Source: a virus (Duplodnaviria > Heunggongvirae > Uroviricota > Caudoviricetes). From it: a stretch of DNA of 36,329 nt. Below, piece by piece: positions 1 to 35,801 of the stretch. A model generated the notes under the pieces. That model worked only from the letters and a program-made list of their open reading frames with translations, made no database searches and was not told the DNA's origin. The stretch lies in IMG/VR virus record IMGVR_UViG_2737471834_000007; one strand, 5' to 3'. Every line of letters starts with the position of its first letter. Positions within the stretch are counted from its first letter, which is position 1. A program made the translations under genes and the position numbers.

Positions 1-174
1 ATGGGGTTATTGAACAGGAATGATGTCGAAGTTGAATTACACCTTTGTACCAGAGACGATGAGCCTAAAACCGCAAAGCTCAAATTAAGAAACATCAAAG
101 ATGTTGATGCGTGTGAGCGCCTGATTGATAAACTGGCTGCTGTGGTAATAACGTCAAAGAAAAATGAAGAATAA
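1..174 (+). CDS. Small ORF (57 codons) beginning at the first base of the window; hypothetical, may be a complete small protein or the 3' end of a gene to the left
   Basis: Open frame from ATG at 1 to TAA at 172-174; followed by a weak hairpin near 207-238 and a strong one at 291-312. No recognisable motif. Confidence 0.3.
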   Translation: MGLLNRNDVEVELHLCTRDDEPKTAKLKLRNIKDVDACERLIDKLAAVVITSKKNEE

Positions 175-290
175 TTGATAAGCCAACCACCATCTCTTGA
201 AATAAAAAGCCCACGATTAATCTTGTGGACTTTTTGCATTCAGGCTTGCGAGATAGGGTGCCTTATCGACCTTAACCCTGGCAACCGATT

Positions 291-321
291 GACGGGGGAT
301 TGCTCCCCCGTCGCGGTTTTC
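291..321. terminator. Stem-loop GACGGGGGA-TTGC-TCCCCCGTC followed by a T-run on the + strand; also lies directly 3' of the hok-like ORF on the - strand
   Basis: Perfect 9-bp inverted repeat at 291-299/304-312, then GCGGTTTTCTT. Confidence 0.45.
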
Positions 322-462
322 TTACTGTTTACATTGTAAGAACGCCGCAAACTCCGCACCCCAGAAGCTCATCCGTATTTCACACAGCGAACCGTGCAAC
401 ATCCAGATGATAAGGATGACCGTCGCGCAGAACGTGATGGCCGTAAGCGATTTTTGCGACAT
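322..462 (-). CDS. Hok/Gef-family type I toxin (46 aa small membrane peptide), missing from the ORF track because it is under 60 aa
   Basis: Translation MSQKSLTAITFCATVILIIWMLHGSLCEIRMSFWGAEFAAFLQCKQ: hydrophobic N-terminus, SLCEI motif and E-x-AAFL-x-CK tail resemble E. coli HokA as recalled from memory. AAGGAG lies 8 nt upstream of the ATG at 462; stop TAA at 322-324. Confidence 0.6.
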   Translation of the reverse strand: MSQKSLTAITFCATVILIIWMLHGSLCEIRMSFWGAEFAAFLQCKQ

Positions 463-482
463 AGCGCTTGCTCCTTTTTCAT
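369..482 (-). CDS. mok-like overlapping reading frame (37 codons) starting 20 nt upstream of the hok-like start
   Basis: ATG at 482 in a different frame from the hok-like ORF, ending inside it, as in hok/mok loci; no SD (preceded by CCTCC). Speculative. Confidence 0.25.
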   Translation of the reverse strand: MKKEQALCRKNRLRPSRSARRSSLSSGCCTVRCVKYG

Positions 483-727
483 GGAGGCGCTAACCTGTCA
501 CTTGCTAGGTAGACGGGATAGGGCCTCGGTTAAACAAAAGTGTTTTCCGGGGCCTTTCCACATCCGGCCTTCTGGTTTACCCTCCGACCATCAGCCGAAA
601 GGCACCCGCGTGTAATGTACTGATTTCATATTGTATGTGCAATGCTCGTCACATTTTTTAAATACGTGTAAAACGTAATTGCGCAAGAAAATGTAGTTTT
701 TATTCTGCTGATTTCAGCGTAGAGAAT

Positions 728-1108
728 TTATGAGTTCTGAAATTCTTCTGCACGCCTTTCCAGTTCAGCCATGAAAGATGTTCTGGCTTTTTCGTGAGCA
801 TCGGGGGCCATGATGCTGATGATTTGTATATTGTTATAATCCATCCAGTGCCTGGTATAAACCAGATAGATATTTGAAGTTCTGTCTATCTGGGCCTTGC
901 TTTTCTTCCATGGTGGTTCCGATGGTAGTCTTATGTGTAATTTATATACAAACGAACCACATAGTCTTGCGTTATCTTCCCACTGTCCTTCATTGCCGAA
1001 TCTGTCAGGGAGAACGCCGGTATTTAACCAGTTCTCCAGAGCTTTTCCGTAAATTTTTGCAATATCCTGGTATTCAACATCTTTATGAATACTTACTTTG
1101 CTCGCCAT
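728..1108 (-). CDS. Hypothetical cytoplasmic protein (126 aa), second gene of a two-gene cargo operon
   Basis: Start ATG overlaps the upstream stop by 1 nt (TGATG). No signal peptide. A YKLHIRL...IYLVYTRHW...IQIISI stretch is faintly RelE/ParE-like but not convincing. Confidence 0.5.
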   Translation of the reverse strand: MASKVSIHKDVEYQDIAKIYGKALENWLNTGVLPDRFGNEGQWEDNARLCGSFVYKLHIRLPSEPPWKKSKAQIDRTSNIYLVYTRHWMDYNNIQIISIMAPDAHEKARTSFMAELERRAEEFQNS

Positions 1109-1734
1109 CAGGAAAACTCCGGAGCCGGGAGTCCCATATTTTTATGCTCGGCAATAATCATTGTTTTCACATTTTCGTCAGACAGCGTATTGCCCAGACT
1201 GGTAGTTTTTTCAGGTGCAGTGCTTCGCTCGATGGCGTTGATGGTATCACGAACGATAAATTCACCCTGCGCAATTGCCCGACCAAAACGAACCAGTTTA
1301 TTGCGATAGGCGATTCTTTGCTCAAGACTGTCCGGATACATTTTTGCCAGGTTATCCGGGGCCATTACAATCCTGACAGCCTCTTTAACACGGGTGTGCT
1401 GCCTGAGTGACTCTTCGCATATTTTCGTTATTTTTGCTATGTTGTCAGTAAACAGCGCTCCTTTGCCTCTGTTCTGACGCTCTTCAATGACGGCATTGAG
1501 TGCAGCGCGCATGTTGTTATTCAGCCCGTTAATATATTCAATAGCTTCTTCAAGAGGCAGAAACACCTGGCCGTCATGATGCTCAAATGTAAGCATTGAA
1601 ACTACTCTGGCGTGCGTCCCGGATTCAATAACTGTTGTTGGTAGTATCGTGCTTTTAGCTGGCACCGGAGCCAGTGATGCTGTCAGAGCTGCAGCAATGG
1701 CAGCAATGGCAGCAGACTTTGATTTTTGTTTCAT
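1108..1734 (-). CDS. Predicted secreted/periplasmic protein (208 aa from the ATG at 1734; the track ORF starts at GTG 1746), first gene of the cargo operon
   Basis: N-terminus MKQKSKSAAIAAIAAALTASLAPVPAKS looks like a Sec signal peptide; GGAG 7 nt upstream of the ATG at 1734. No catalytic motif recognised. Confidence 0.55.
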   Translation of the reverse strand: MKQKSKSAAIAAIAAALTASLAPVPAKSTILPTTVIESGTHARVVSMLTFEHHDGQVFLPLEEAIEYINGLNNNMRAALNAVIEERQNRGKGALFTDNIAKITKICEESLRQHTRVKEAVRIVMAPDNLAKMYPDSLEQRIAYRNKLVRFGRAIAQGEFIVRDTINAIERSTAPEKTTSLGNTLSDENVKTMIIAEHKNMGLPAPEFS

Positions 1735-2215
1735 AATGCACTCCACAGGTTGATGTGTTCAGCATATCGCAAATAGCAACTTGCATAAAGAAACGCCACA
1801 TCGGCATCGATCGTTTTACGCGTTTTTTTTCTTGTTGTGATCCTTTTTTCAGTTTTATTTTACCCGTTAATTTTGCGCAGGCCGCGCCGTGTCTGGCTTC
1901 TTTGTCTGATGGTTGTTTGATGCGATCCCTTCGTGATCGTTTTTCGTCTCACGTAAAGTATGAAAACTCTTTTAATATCATGCTGTTTTATTGCTCCAGC
2001 CATTTGTGCGATCGAAAAAATCTCTCTTAAAATTGCAAAAAATTTCAAAGTGTGAAATTTCAGAACTTCGCTTTTCCCCCAGTTACTGCGCTGGCTGGCG
2101 GTCATTTTTGCACGACAGAAAACTGAAAAAGCGTTTCAACACAAAACCCGCGGGTTGGAGGGGGTAGCGCGGTTTACGTGACGTGACACTTTACGTCATG
2201 TCTGGCTGGTTATGT

Positions 2216-2325: not shown

Positions 2326-4065
2326 TCAGGCGATAAGGTCGCGGTATTTTTCCCGCAGGGAGGATGACTGTCTGGCATCACCGGTAAATTCACCACTGTT
2401 GGTGGGTGTGCCTGTGCCAGGATGTGCGTGTGTGGCAGTATGTGTTGCCAGTTGTTCAATGAGATCCAGAATATCAACGAACAACGTCATCAGGTTCAGG
2501 CTGTCGCCACCCTGTGAACCATTTCGGCCTATAAACAGGGTCGGCGCAGAGAGGGAAAGACCACCACTGGCGGTGGTGGTCTGTGTACCGCTGATGTTCT
2601 CTGTGATATTCCCGCTTACTGTGCTGTTAACATTACCGCCGATGGTTTCCTGCCTGTCAGCACTGATGCGGCGTATCTCTGCCTGTAATTCCGCAATAAG
2701 GCTGTTTGCTTTCATCCTGATATCACCGGTGGCCACAATACCGTAATCACCATCAGAACCATGGACGATCTGCCCTGCCATCAGTGAACTCGTCCCGAGT
2801 ACCGTGGTACTGTCTGTGGCCTGTACGGTTGTTGTGCGGGTTGTCGTCCGGCGGCTTTCCTGGTCGCTGGTTATGATTCGGTGTGCAGATTCTTCCCTGA
2901 TTTTCTGGTCCGTTTCCCGGTGCCATGTGCCGTCACGGGTAACCCTCTGAAATACTTCTGCACGCTGTTGCTGTAGCTGCTCGCCAGGCTGGATATCAGG
3001 AAGATTCAGTCCGGATGGGAGTATCTGCCTTATTACCGGTTTATCTGGCCGTCCTTCGATATGCGCGATTTCCACTATCGTTCCGGCTTCCGGATAAGAA
3101 AAACAACCGGCCTCATTTCCGGCCATGGGTACCGGAAGCGGCACAGCAGGATATACAGGCGTGTTGTTGCTATCGTTGCCGTTTTCGTCCAGTAACTGCA
3201 GGTCAACAGCATAACGTGGGCGAAAACTGTCTGCCACATCGCCAAGCGTCGTGGATTCTGTTGGCGAGATAACGCGGGCCAGTCTTGGGCGTAATGTTCC
3301 GTCAGCCAGCTCCGGAAACTGCGATTCTGTCTGACGGCGCAGAGGTGAGCTGGATACGACAGAACCATCCTGGCGAAACCTGTCCCATGTCAGTGTCATG
3401 GTTTCATTATGAATGGCCACACGCGTGATCCGTCCTGCAGGAAGGTTAACGCCGGGGCGCAGAGTCTCTATCAACATGATATCCATACTGTTGCCGGCGC
3501 TGTGCCCCAGTGCATATTCATCAGGAATTTCCGGGATGGTCAGCGATGCAAAGCGTGAGTCACTGGCGCTGCCAACGAATACAGAACCATCCGGCATGGG
3601 ATGCCAGACGTAATCCTGAATGCTGAATATCCTGCCAAGATGATCAAGCAGGCGGGTACCGCTTCCGCTGTGAGTGACGCAGGGTACTGGTGTGGATACA
3701 TAGGCAGATGACGCGGTAATAAACACGATACCGCTCTTTTTTCCGAGATCATCAAGAACATCACGCAGAGTCGGGTGCTGGATGACACACGGAAAGCTGA
3801 AATCCAGTACCGCGGCAGCTTCCCTGATGAACAGACGGCGGGCGCCGTTTTCTGCCGGTTGATCGCGCTCAACGTAACCTGAGAAATAACGCCAGGCCTG
3901 GCCATCACGCCCAAAATCAATCTGAATCATGGCACCGGCCAGCGTGCTGCGCTGATTCGGCAGGGTGACAAAACCTCTTCCTGATGCGTTCAGTGACAGG
4001 ACCAGACTGATGTCTGTTATTTCTGTCTGTTTACCGTTTACCATGCATCTCTGAATAATTTTCAT
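2326..4065 (-). CDS. Baseplate central spike protein (gpV/VgrG-like C-terminal half with a ~330 aa N-terminal extension)
   Basis: AGTIVEIAHIEGRPDKPVIRQILPSG resembles the gpV OB-fold motif; C-terminal ATHTATHAHPGTG (H-x-H) resembles the spike apex of P2 gpV as recalled from memory. Start overlaps the upstream stop. Confidence 0.5.
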   Translation of the reverse strand: MKIIQRCMVNGKQTEITDISLVLSLNASGRGFVTLPNQRSTLAGAMIQIDFGRDGQAWRYFSGYVERDQPAENGARRLFIREAAAVLDFSFPCVIQHPTLRDVLDDLGKKSGIVFITASSAYVSTPVPCVTHSGSGTRLLDHLGRIFSIQDYVWHPMPDGSVFVGSASDSRFASLTIPEIPDEYALGHSAGNSMDIMLIETLRPGVNLPAGRITRVAIHNETMTLTWDRFRQDGSVVSSSPLRRQTESQFPELADGTLRPRLARVISPTESTTLGDVADSFRPRYAVDLQLLDENGNDSNNTPVYPAVPLPVPMAGNEAGCFSYPEAGTIVEIAHIEGRPDKPVIRQILPSGLNLPDIQPGEQLQQQRAEVFQRVTRDGTWHRETDQKIREESAHRIITSDQESRRTTTRTTTVQATDSTTVLGTSSLMAGQIVHGSDGDYGIVATGDIRMKANSLIAELQAEIRRISADRQETIGGNVNSTVSGNITENISGTQTTTASGGLSLSAPTLFIGRNGSQGGDSLNLMTLFVDILDLIEQLATHTATHAHPGTGTPTNSGEFTGDARQSSSLREKYRDLIA

Positions 4066-29492: not shown

Positions 29493-29780
29493 GGTATGGC
29501 CTCTTCGTTTGTAAGTTTGGGAAACTCACCATCCAGAGGTTCCAAGCTCGGGGTGGCGAGACGTACGGGGTTGGAACTACCGGAAAACGAAGAAACCGGC
29601 CCGACCAGAGTCGGCCCCGTACGCCCCGCCATAATTTGGGTGCGAAAACGGCGTGGCGATACGGTACGCACAAAAAAACCGCTGGCGCGGCTGTGCGCTT
29701 CGTTTGTCGGCGGGGTTCCAATCCCGGCACCCGTTTTATGAGGTGCAGCGGGAATGTAACCCGACAGATTGCGGCATGGC

Positions 29781-34724: not shown

Positions 34725-34790
34725 CGGTCCATCTGGCCTTTATTTCTCAAAATTGTGATCAAGATGATGTTTTCATTGGGGGGCTTCCTT

Positions 34791-35801
34791 ATGTCGATTA
34801 AGAAGCTCGCTGATGGCAAATACTGTGTGGACGTGCGGCCTGCTGGATCTGAAGGAAGAAGATTTCGGCGGCGATTTCCTACCCGTGGTGAAGCGGCGAT
34901 GTATGAACGCCATGTTCTGACGCATTATCACGATAAGGACTGGGTAGAAAAACCCATTGAACGTAAAGCGTTAAGCGATCTTCTGGAACTGTGGTGGGTG
35001 TACCACGGTAAGAATCATCGTTATGGCGCGATGAATCGGGTCAGAATTGAAGCGGTTCTTCGTGATATGCGAGAGCTTGGTATTAACAGAAGTGACCATT
35101 TAACCCGAAAAAATATTATCAGATATCGCCTTGAATTAATGAATCGTGGAATTAAGCAGTCAACGGTAAATCGTTATTGCGCAATGATGAGCGGTTTCTT
35201 TGAAAAGCTGATTGATGTTGAAGAGTTTGTGGGTGATAACCCATTTCACGAGATACGCAAGCTAACAATTAATCAGCCTGAAATGGCTTATCTTGCACAT
35301 GATGATATTCCCAGGCTAACCGCGCTTTTATCTGGCGATAATCTTAAGGCTGTATTGTTAAGCCTGGCCACTGGCGGTCGTTGGGGTGAAGTTGCCAATA
35401 TTAAAGGTGAACACATAATTGGTGGGAAGGTTATTTTCATGGAGACAAAGAATGGATCTAGGCGGGTTATTCCTATAGCTAAAGATCTTGAATCTCTGAT
35501 TAAAGTAAAGGCGACGGGAAGATTAATAAAACCCAGTTATGCAACTGTCAGGAGTGCGATAAGGAGTGTTCGACCTGATTTGCCAGTCGGTCAGTCTGTG
35601 CATGTTTTACGACACACATTTGCAACTCATTTTATGATTAATGGGGGGAATATTATTACCCTGCAGCGTATTTTAGGACATAGCACAATCCAGCAAACAA
35701 TGACCTATGCGCACTTTGCACCTGATTATCTCCAGGATGCGGTAAGGTTCAATCCTGTCGCGGAGTTGTCCAGATATTGTCCACAAATAGGGACTAAATA
35801 G
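34791..35801 (+). CDS. int: Tyrosine integrase, P2 Int-like (336 aa from the ATG at 34791; track ORF starts at GTG 34755)
   Basis: MSIKKLADGKYCVDVRP matches the P2 Int N-terminus (MAIKKLDDGRYEVDIRP) as recalled from memory; catalytic HVLRHTFATHFMINGG and LGHSTIQQTMTYAHFAPDYLQDA motifs. Confidence 0.85.
   Translation: MSIKKLADGKYCVDVRPAGSEGRRFRRRFPTRGEAAMYERHVLTHYHDKDWVEKPIERKALSDLLELWWVYHGKNHRYGAMNRVRIEAVLRDMRELGINRSDHLTRKNIIRYRLELMNRGIKQSTVNRYCAMMSGFFEKLIDVEEFVGDNPFHEIRKLTINQPEMAYLAHDDIPRLTALLSGDNLKAVLLSLATGGRWGEVANIKGEHIIGGKVIFMETKNGSRRVIPIAKDLESLIKVKATGRLIKPSYATVRSAIRSVRPDLPVGQSVHVLRHTFATHFMINGGNIITLQRILGHSTIQQTMTYAHFAPDYLQDAVRFNPVAELSRYCPQIGTK

Follow-up and report, generated by a model that had tools for sequence, protein, structure and literature searches.

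Near one end of a P2-like prophage, an accessory module of about 400 bp is very probably an intact type I toxin-antitoxin cassette of the hok/sok type. The DNA analysed, called the window here, is 36,329 nucleotides long and has the genes of such a prophage, among them those for a baseplate protein (2326..4065) and an integrase (34755..35801). An earlier reading of the bare letters (the original prediction) had proposed a hidden Hok-family locus at its left edge. What was seen there has been confirmed, and the interpretation is supported apart from the homology of an overlapping mok-like frame and the implied status as an undiscovered locus. The features of the cassette are given below in the order of their coordinates.

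204..235, bidirectional: intrinsic terminator shared by hok and the convergent gene fragment 1..174, located by scan and fold
252..607, minus strand: putative full-length hok mRNA (about 352-356 nt) with G607 as its 5' end and a 3' end shortly after fbi, placed by the Rfam start, the fold and the cassette extent
256..271, minus strand: fbi element GGUCGAUAAGGCACCC, complementary to tac, helix 1
283..318, minus strand: 3' stem-loop with the outer helix AACCG/CGGUU and the inner 9-bp stem 312..291, from fold and covariation
322..462, minus strand: hok coding sequence, 46 aa and stop, by PF01848, PHROG 251, an exact NCBI match and the ATG of the homologues
369..482, minus strand: 37-codon out-of-frame ORF ("mok-like") with a lineage-specific ATG
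394..615, plus strand: 73-aa ORF, overlapping RNA elements that are conserved on the opposite strand, judged spurious
468..496, plus strand: predicted Sok promoter, -35 TTGCTC (468-473), 17 nt, -10 TAACCT (491-496), placed by position and conservation
471..476, minus strand: hok Shine-Dalgarno sequence AAGGAG, paired with dcb CUCC in predicted folds
484..528, minus strand: region of the putative Sok-target hairpin, in which CGAGGCC (528..522) is predicted to pair with dcb GCGCCUC(C) (490..483), covered by the Rfam alignment
503..560, plus strand: predicted Sok RNA of about 55-60 nt, from the fold
549..555, minus strand: ucb AGGCCCC, predicted partner of CGAGGCC (closed mRNA) and of tac (open mRNA)
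593..607, minus strand: tac element, GGGUGCCUU and an extension, the 5' segment predicted to pair with fbi or ucb or to fold into a local metastable hairpin
614..642, minus strand: putative hok promoter, -35 TTGCAC (642..637), 17-nt spacer, -10 TACATT (619..614)

The 46-codon ORF belongs to the Hok/Gef family

The ORF of 46 codons and a stop at 322..462 (minus strand) encodes the peptide MSQKSLTAITFCATVILIIWMLHGSLCEIRMSFWGAEFAAFLQCKQ. Both motifs named in the original prediction, SLCEI and E-F-AAFL-Q-CK, are found in it, and the AAGGAG sequence lies at 476..471 with a spacing of 8 nt to the hok ATG. A search with the Pfam model Hok/Gef (PF01848), which had been proposed as a check, gave 28.4 bits (E 1.2e-6) over profile positions 5-42 of 42 and thus exceeded the curated gathering cut-off of 22 bits. 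PHROG 251 ("MokW-like host killing", category moron) matched over the full length with 80.4 bits (E 1.4e-22); 'MokW-like' in this label is a family name only. Judged from these profile scores, the match to the family is well beyond chance.

The residues conserved in the Hok family logo are C16, T18, L30, C31, E32 and E41 in logo numbering (bioRxiv 10.1101/2025.08.07.668861), and the window peptide has them as C12, T14, L26, C27, E28 and E37. Among 23 relatives, C27 and E28 were invariant and L26 was kept in at least 90%. The same aligned ATG opens a 46-codon Hok ORF in 19 of 21 aligned homologues. We conclude from its sequence that the 46-aa ORF is a member of the Hok/Gef family of membrane-killing toxins.

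The nearest known relatives are the peptides of cluster 72, a 60%-identity cluster (bioRxiv 10.1101/2025.08.07.668861), the RefSeq entry WP_000078916.1 ('Hok/Gef family protein') and PHROG 251. The cluster 72 peptide 72_1621 also has 46 aa and is identical to the window peptide at 44 of the 46 residues; the two differences, V13A and A15V, are conservative and lie in the membrane helix. With R1 Hok, the identity was 39% over 31 residues, the conserved core. The best NCBIfam match was the HokA model, and HokA of E. coli K-12 has the AAFLxCK C-terminus in common with the window peptide. However, the score against the HokA equivalog NF007290 was 35.1 with a cut-off of 89, and that against the Hok subfamily NF007279 was 21.6 with a cut-off of 73, so both thresholds were missed. 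Since the HokA score is far below the equivalog cut-off, we rejected the identification as a HokA orthologue; HokA is also different in its length of 50 aa and falls into cluster 93. An identification as hokW (Sp5, 933W) was rejected as well, because the Sp5 HokW-type peptide is only 34% identical over 35 residues and belongs to a different 60% cluster. HokW has 51 aa, and a peptide matching its 3' end was placed with HokD in cluster 35, not 72 (bioRxiv 10.1101/2025.08.07.668861).

The hok mRNA is predicted to be closed end to end

The putative -10 box of hok aligns with a conserved TAGAAT/TAGATT box of the homologues, 6 nt before CGGGTGCC, and the -35 region is unconserved among them. When positions 150..760 were scanned for consensus promoters, no promoter reached the threshold, the hok and the Sok sites both being below it. 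Both promoters are therefore proposed on the grounds of positional homology and conservation.

The likely 5' end of the transcript was taken from the Rfam model RF01794. The model aligned over its full length on the hok strand, from 607 down to 449, with 35.9 bits (E 3.7e-6), which misses its gathering score of 59. Although RF01794 is named "sok", its match runs in the same direction as the hok mRNA leader. When it was applied to an R1-like plasmid locus, the match was likewise on the hok strand, from the 5' end of the mRNA to the hok ATG, with 87.2 bits. Since the model matches the hok strand in the R1-like locus, we read the match in the window as the hok leader, and G607 as its likely 5' end.

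In the minimum-energy fold of the RNA 607..203, the first ~23 nt pair with a region ~340 nt downstream (z -5.9). The core of this closing helix is formed by GGGUGCCUU (607..599) and AAGGCACCC (264..256). Such a tac/fbi clamp is a defining trait of hok mRNAs (PMC9841398). The original prediction had suggested folding the transcript for 5'/3' pairing, and this pairing is present in the ~350-nt RNA and covaries in the homologues. The tac/fbi helix (helix 1) has 12 pairs, is 98.8% paired and contains 3 pairs with changes on both sides; it was found in the full-length minimum-energy folds of all 21 homologues. In the same kind of fold, the GAGGC box paired with ucb in 21 of 21 sequences. In this ucb/CGAGGCC helix (helix 4), pairing is 100% and 2 pairs covary; the CGAGGCC box at 528..522 is the counterpart of the R1 mok Shine-Dalgarno sequence. 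The first 40 nt of the window mRNA can also form a local hairpin of -18 kcal/mol, as expected of a metastable co-transcriptional structure. The homology of the cassette in phages and plasmids covers 619..250 or 619..226.

The perfect 9-bp hairpin that had been noted 3' of hok was found at 312..291, 10 nt past the hok stop, as GACGGGGGA-GCAA-TCCCCCGTC, and 5 of its 9 pairs covary. With the outer helix included, the stem-loop at 318..283 has a folding energy of -25.3 kcal/mol (z -5.5). By analogy to the terminal stem-loop of the truncated R1 hok mRNA (PMC9841398), it probably protects the 3' end of the mRNA after processing. Further downstream, the terminator scan matched at 211-228 on the plus strand; on the minus strand, the hairpin has -12.6 kcal/mol (z -4.6) and is followed by UUUUUAUUU. 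A similar hairpin follows fbi in most of the homologues.

The helices of two alternative conformations are conserved

The RNA elements were compared in an alignment of 21 distinct copies with 63-90% identity to the window, drawn from homologous loci in the genomes of E. coli, Salmonella, Citrobacter, Klebsiella and E. albertii, in phages and in a plasmid-like contig. The RNAalifold consensus contained the tac/fbi helix, the ucb/CGAGGCC helix, the 3' stem-loop and a helix between the start region of hok and its distal coding region. For this closed structure, 97.6% of the cells were paired, whereas only 36-43% were paired when the partners were slid by 1-3 columns. Changes on both sides occurred in 16 pairs, among them 3 in tac/fbi, 2 in ucb and the SD box and 5 in the 9-bp hairpin.

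The open structure, in which tac pairs with ucb and CGAGGCC with dcb GCGCCUC, was 93.8% paired, as against 34-56% in the slid controls. The tac/ucb helix was 96% paired with 2 covarying pairs and the CGAGGCC/dcb helix was 91% paired. Alignment columns 13-15 of tac covary with their fbi and ucb partners, columns 13-14 with both alternatives. In one homologue (L020), ucb, the SD box and dcb carry one substitution each, and both mutually exclusive helices are preserved: the change is a compensated G-C to A-U in CGAGGCC/dcb that is also compatible with the ucb pairing. The RNA helices of both conformations are thus conserved and covarying in the homologues.

When fbi was removed, tac switched to ucb in 10 of the 21 minimum-energy folds. 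In the truncated mRNA of the window, the minimum-energy fold held tac in the local hairpin, and the tac/ucb form was 4.1 kcal/mol higher, which is within the prediction error but no proof of the switch.

In one Salmonella locus (L011, ~626-800), the 5' end of tac is lost and unrelated sequence is found instead, with ORF, Sok region and fbi all retained. Either this locus is decayed or its 5' end is a different one.

A Sok RNA is predicted opposite the hok leader

A Sok-like antisense RNA had been expected on the plus strand around 460-560, and a promoter at 468-496 with an RNA at 503-560 can be placed there as a prediction. In R1 and R100, the plus-strand sequence opposite dcb reads TTGCGC-17-TATCCT, at the same position as TTGCTC-17-TAACCT of the window, and a published Sok-promoter mutation was stated to fall within dcb (PMC9841398). 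Among the 21 homologues, the -10 box is TAACCT in 16 and TATCCT in 5, and the -35 box is TTGCTC in 13, TTTACT in 7 and TTGACT in 1. The predicted promoter is a weak match to the consensus and was not reported by the scanner.

With a start near 500-504, the predicted RNA would begin with a single-stranded 5' tail of 16 nt, fold into a hairpin at 521-559 and end in a short U-rich tail; its folding energy is -24.8 kcal/mol (z -3.1). In this fold model, it has the classical Sok shape. The RNA would be complementary to nt ~48-105 of the hok mRNA and stop short of the hok Shine-Dalgarno sequence.

Proposed function of the cassette

For the transcript ends, their processing, the expression of Sok and the biological role, we infer the following scheme. 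The minus strand would be transcribed into a stable mRNA of about 352 nt. In the full-length molecule, tac at the 5' end would be clamped to fbi at the 3' end, ucb would cover CGAGGCC, and the ribosome-binding site and the start codon of hok would be buried. This closed mRNA would neither be translated nor bind the antisense RNA. Slow trimming of the 3' end back to the 9-bp stem-loop would then remove fbi, after which tac could pair with ucb and CGAGGCC with dcb. The resulting open mRNA would be translatable and at the same time a target of Sok, a short and unstable plus-strand RNA (about 503-560) that would pair with the leader and bring about the decay of the mRNA. When the supply of Sok ends by loss of the element, by transcription shut-off or by prophage induction, the 46-aa Hok would be made, enter the inner membrane and collapse the membrane potential.

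The cassette apparently lacks an R1-type mok

The original prediction had described a mok-like ORF that overlaps hok out of frame. An ORF of 37 codons does exist at 482..369, but it is restricted to a sublineage and its position is not homologous to that of R1 mok. Its ATG at 482..480, 20 nt upstream of the hok start, was found only in the window and in two homologues (L023 and L025), both of which encode a Hok identical to that of the window; in the other homologues, CCG, CTG or a similar triplet takes its place. A Pfam search with the 37-codon ORF had no match. In neither alternative frame of the 21 homologues did we find an overlapping ORF with a conserved start. When the same script was applied to R100 as the positive control, the canonical mok of 70 codons was recovered, starting 7 nt after GAGG and 58 nt upstream of hok and ending just before the hok stop. 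Because no conserved overlapping frame was found while the mok of R100 was recovered, the 46-aa Hok lineage apparently lacks an R1-type mok, and the 37-codon ORF is probably not a functional mok. It follows from the missing mok frame that the translational-coupling mechanism of R1 is not transferable as it stands.

R100 was used as the control after L027, an R1-like IncFII variant without the canonical mok start, had been discarded. L027 is the R1-type locus of the IncFII plasmid pMTY1886 (about 340-403), and its Hok is 100% identical to R1 Hok. In its variant target loop, the canonical mok start is removed and an ATG in frame with hok is present 57 nt upstream. This suggests that mok is not uniformly conserved even in R1-like plasmids.

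In other respects, the cassette resembles the hok/sok (parB) loci of R1 and R100, with the same peptide family, the same logic of tac/fbi, ucb/dcb and 3' stem-loop, an mRNA that is predicted to be closed end to end and a predicted Sok promoter at the homologous position. It differs in its shorter leader (145 nt as compared to 173 nt in R100) and mRNA (about 352 nt as compared to 398 nt from the 5' end to the end of fbi, determined with the same script), in having no R1-type mok after the GAGG box and in the RF01794 score of 35.9 as compared to 87 bits.

In a second reading, hok is functional but controlled in a way other than in R1. There would be no mok, dcb (GCGCCUCC) would double as the anti-Shine-Dalgarno sequence of hok, and the switch and Sok would act directly on hok translation. 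The absence of a conserved overlapping ORF in the 21 homologues and the shorter leader fit this reading. In addition, the CUCC of dcb pairs with the GGAG of the hok Shine-Dalgarno sequence in the predicted folds, which suggests a direct control of hok translation. In the homologues, the GAGG box is invariant in spite of having no start codon behind it, an invariance that its two RNA pairings could account for. On the other hand, when minimum-energy folds of the 21 homologues and the window were compared upon truncation, no clear release of the Shine-Dalgarno sequence was seen in the open state. In the predicted open fold of the window it was still paired, and in the 6 homologues with the GAGGC-dcb pairing in the truncated fold it was paired at 3 to 8 of 8 positions. 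Moreover, the sample consists of 21 sequences from one cluster, and near-cognate mok starts are possible; the prediction of mok is called unreliable or not trivial by the authors of bioRxiv 10.1101/2025.08.07.668861. We therefore consider direct control of hok possible but somewhat doubtful. If it were true, the cluster 72 lineage would represent a simplified form of the classical hok/mok/sok design with its three genes.

The lack of a conserved mok frame is the only mildly unusual feature of the locus. It is the one point that perhaps deserves follow-up, as it bears on how general the translational-coupling model of R1 is.

The cassette is probably not a decayed remnant

Several chromosomal hok loci of E. 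coli K-12 are decayed remnants, and the locus of the window could be such a remnant that is now neither expressed nor toxic. Both promoters match the consensus weakly, and the hok -10 box is TACATT in the window as compared to TAGAAT in most homologues. Also, some relatives are plainly decayed: L011 is without the 5' leader, and many peptides are partial. Against decay in the window, the ORF, the Shine-Dalgarno sequence, tac, ucb, dcb, the stem-loop, fbi and the terminator are all intact. The loci L023 and L025 of other E. coli prophages are 89-90% identical to the window over the full 451-nt slice, including the flanks, with an identical peptide. Of 45 Hok homologues tested by others, 42 were toxic and the three named as non-toxic are from clusters other than 72; 72_1589 and the two-residue variant 72_1621 are among the cloned constructs (Table S2), and such close variants are absent from the non-toxic ones (bioRxiv 10.1101/2025.08.07.668861). 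A decayed locus is thus quite unlikely, and we retain the intact hok/sok-type cassette as the preferred reading.

The hok gene is annotated in public databases

The original prediction had pointed out that hok was invisible in the ORF track and antisense to a spurious ORF at 394..615. The 73-aa ORF indeed exists on the plus strand, opposite to the conserved hok leader and the hok start. Since the ORF lister has a default length limit of 60 aa, the 46-aa ORF falls below it and the 73-aa antisense ORF passes, which would explain why hok was 'hidden'. That the 73-aa ORF is the real gene and the Hok-like ORF a chance antisense frame has next to no probability: it is the longer ORF and the one displayed in the standard track, but the significant family matches (PF01848, PHROG 251) are to the minus-strand peptide, the Hok ORF starts from the same aligned ATG in nearly all homologues, public records annotate the gene on the minus strand, and the longest antisense frame free of stops ranges between 57 and 103 aa in the homologues, a coarse measure that is not specific to the 394..615 ORF. 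For the local annotation, the 73-aa ORF on the plus strand should be dropped and hok and the predicted Sok added. A small toxin gene that is missed by the standard ORF length filters was here recoverable by reading the raw sequence.

The locus was therefore hidden with respect to the ORF limit but not undiscovered, as the same peptide is publicly annotated as Hok/Gef. The exact window peptide is found at NCBI as "Hok/Gef family protein" in 24 contigs. A cassette of ~370 bp with about 90% identity is present in 1331 of 5426 complete E. coli genomes and also in phages and plasmids, and among the E. coli matches listed it is annotated "Hok/Gef family protein". A full-text literature search for the C-terminal motif of the peptide found no paper. 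Overall, 1264 Hok peptides in 61 clusters, enriched in prophages, have been described in a 2026 preprint (bioRxiv 10.1101/2025.08.07.668861). The locus is not new but an ordinary intact member of a well-known family, and its discovery value is small.

The cassette is a discrete module shared between unrelated prophages

Within an accessory region, the neighbours of hok are a YafO-like toxin gene (728..1108) on one side and, on the other, a convergent phage gene of which the 3' end is present (1..174); the latter meets hok at the shared bidirectional terminator 204..235. The 57 aa encoded at 1..174 on the plus strand match positions 72-128 of the 128-aa phrog_14142, and the window thus begins inside this phage gene. 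The YafO-family ORF on the minus strand encodes 126 aa and matches PF13957 with 96.5 bits. It starts where an upstream ORF of 212 aa stops, the pair spanning 728..1746 (minus strand). YafN is the usual antitoxin partner of YafO. For the 212-aa ORF, no match was found in Pfam, NCBIfam, PHROGs, PADLOC or the PDB sequences, and it may be an unrecognised partner that replaces YafN. The order of a YafO-like gene followed by hok was also seen in a Salmonella locus (L017, 57% identity). PADLOC gave no hits with Hok and its neighbours. Also within the prophage, a C4 antisense RNA (29549..29636, minus strand, 83 bits) and isrK (29672..29746, minus strand, 68 bits) were detected at the Rfam gathering level; they form the immunity RNA pair of the P1/P7 type.

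When the window positions 1-25000 were compared by megablast to a phage collection of 50,697 records, only 226..619 matched, which shows that the hok cassette is a discrete module. It is ~90% identical between otherwise unrelated phages, and the homology begins exactly at the hok -10 box. Elsewhere, the cassette was found after the tail genes of P88-like phages, next to lom in Stx phages, after ogr in Salmonella P2-like prophages, in plasmids, and beside host genes at prophage ends. The window is one more example of hok cassettes moving as discrete modules between unrelated prophages. With its cluster 72 kin, the window shares the cassette DNA (about 90% identical), the flanking RNA elements and a location in a prophage or plasmid; it differs from them by the lineage-specific ATG that opens the 37-codon overlapping ORF and by the YafO-like toxin pair as neighbours.

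A hok/sok locus borne by a prophage is also known from hokW/sokW of the Stx2 prophage Sp5, for which a role in lysis and phage release after induction is experimentally supported (PMC8621323). Stx phages such as POCJ13 have a separate copy of the 46-aa type next to lom. In two Salmonella loci, L016 (801-941 and 1291-1431) and L017 (801-941 and 1295-1435), two 46-aa hok cassettes are arranged in tandem ~490 nt apart, each with its own leader and fbi, like the hok 'islets' of the 2026 preprint (bioRxiv 10.1101/2025.08.07.668861).
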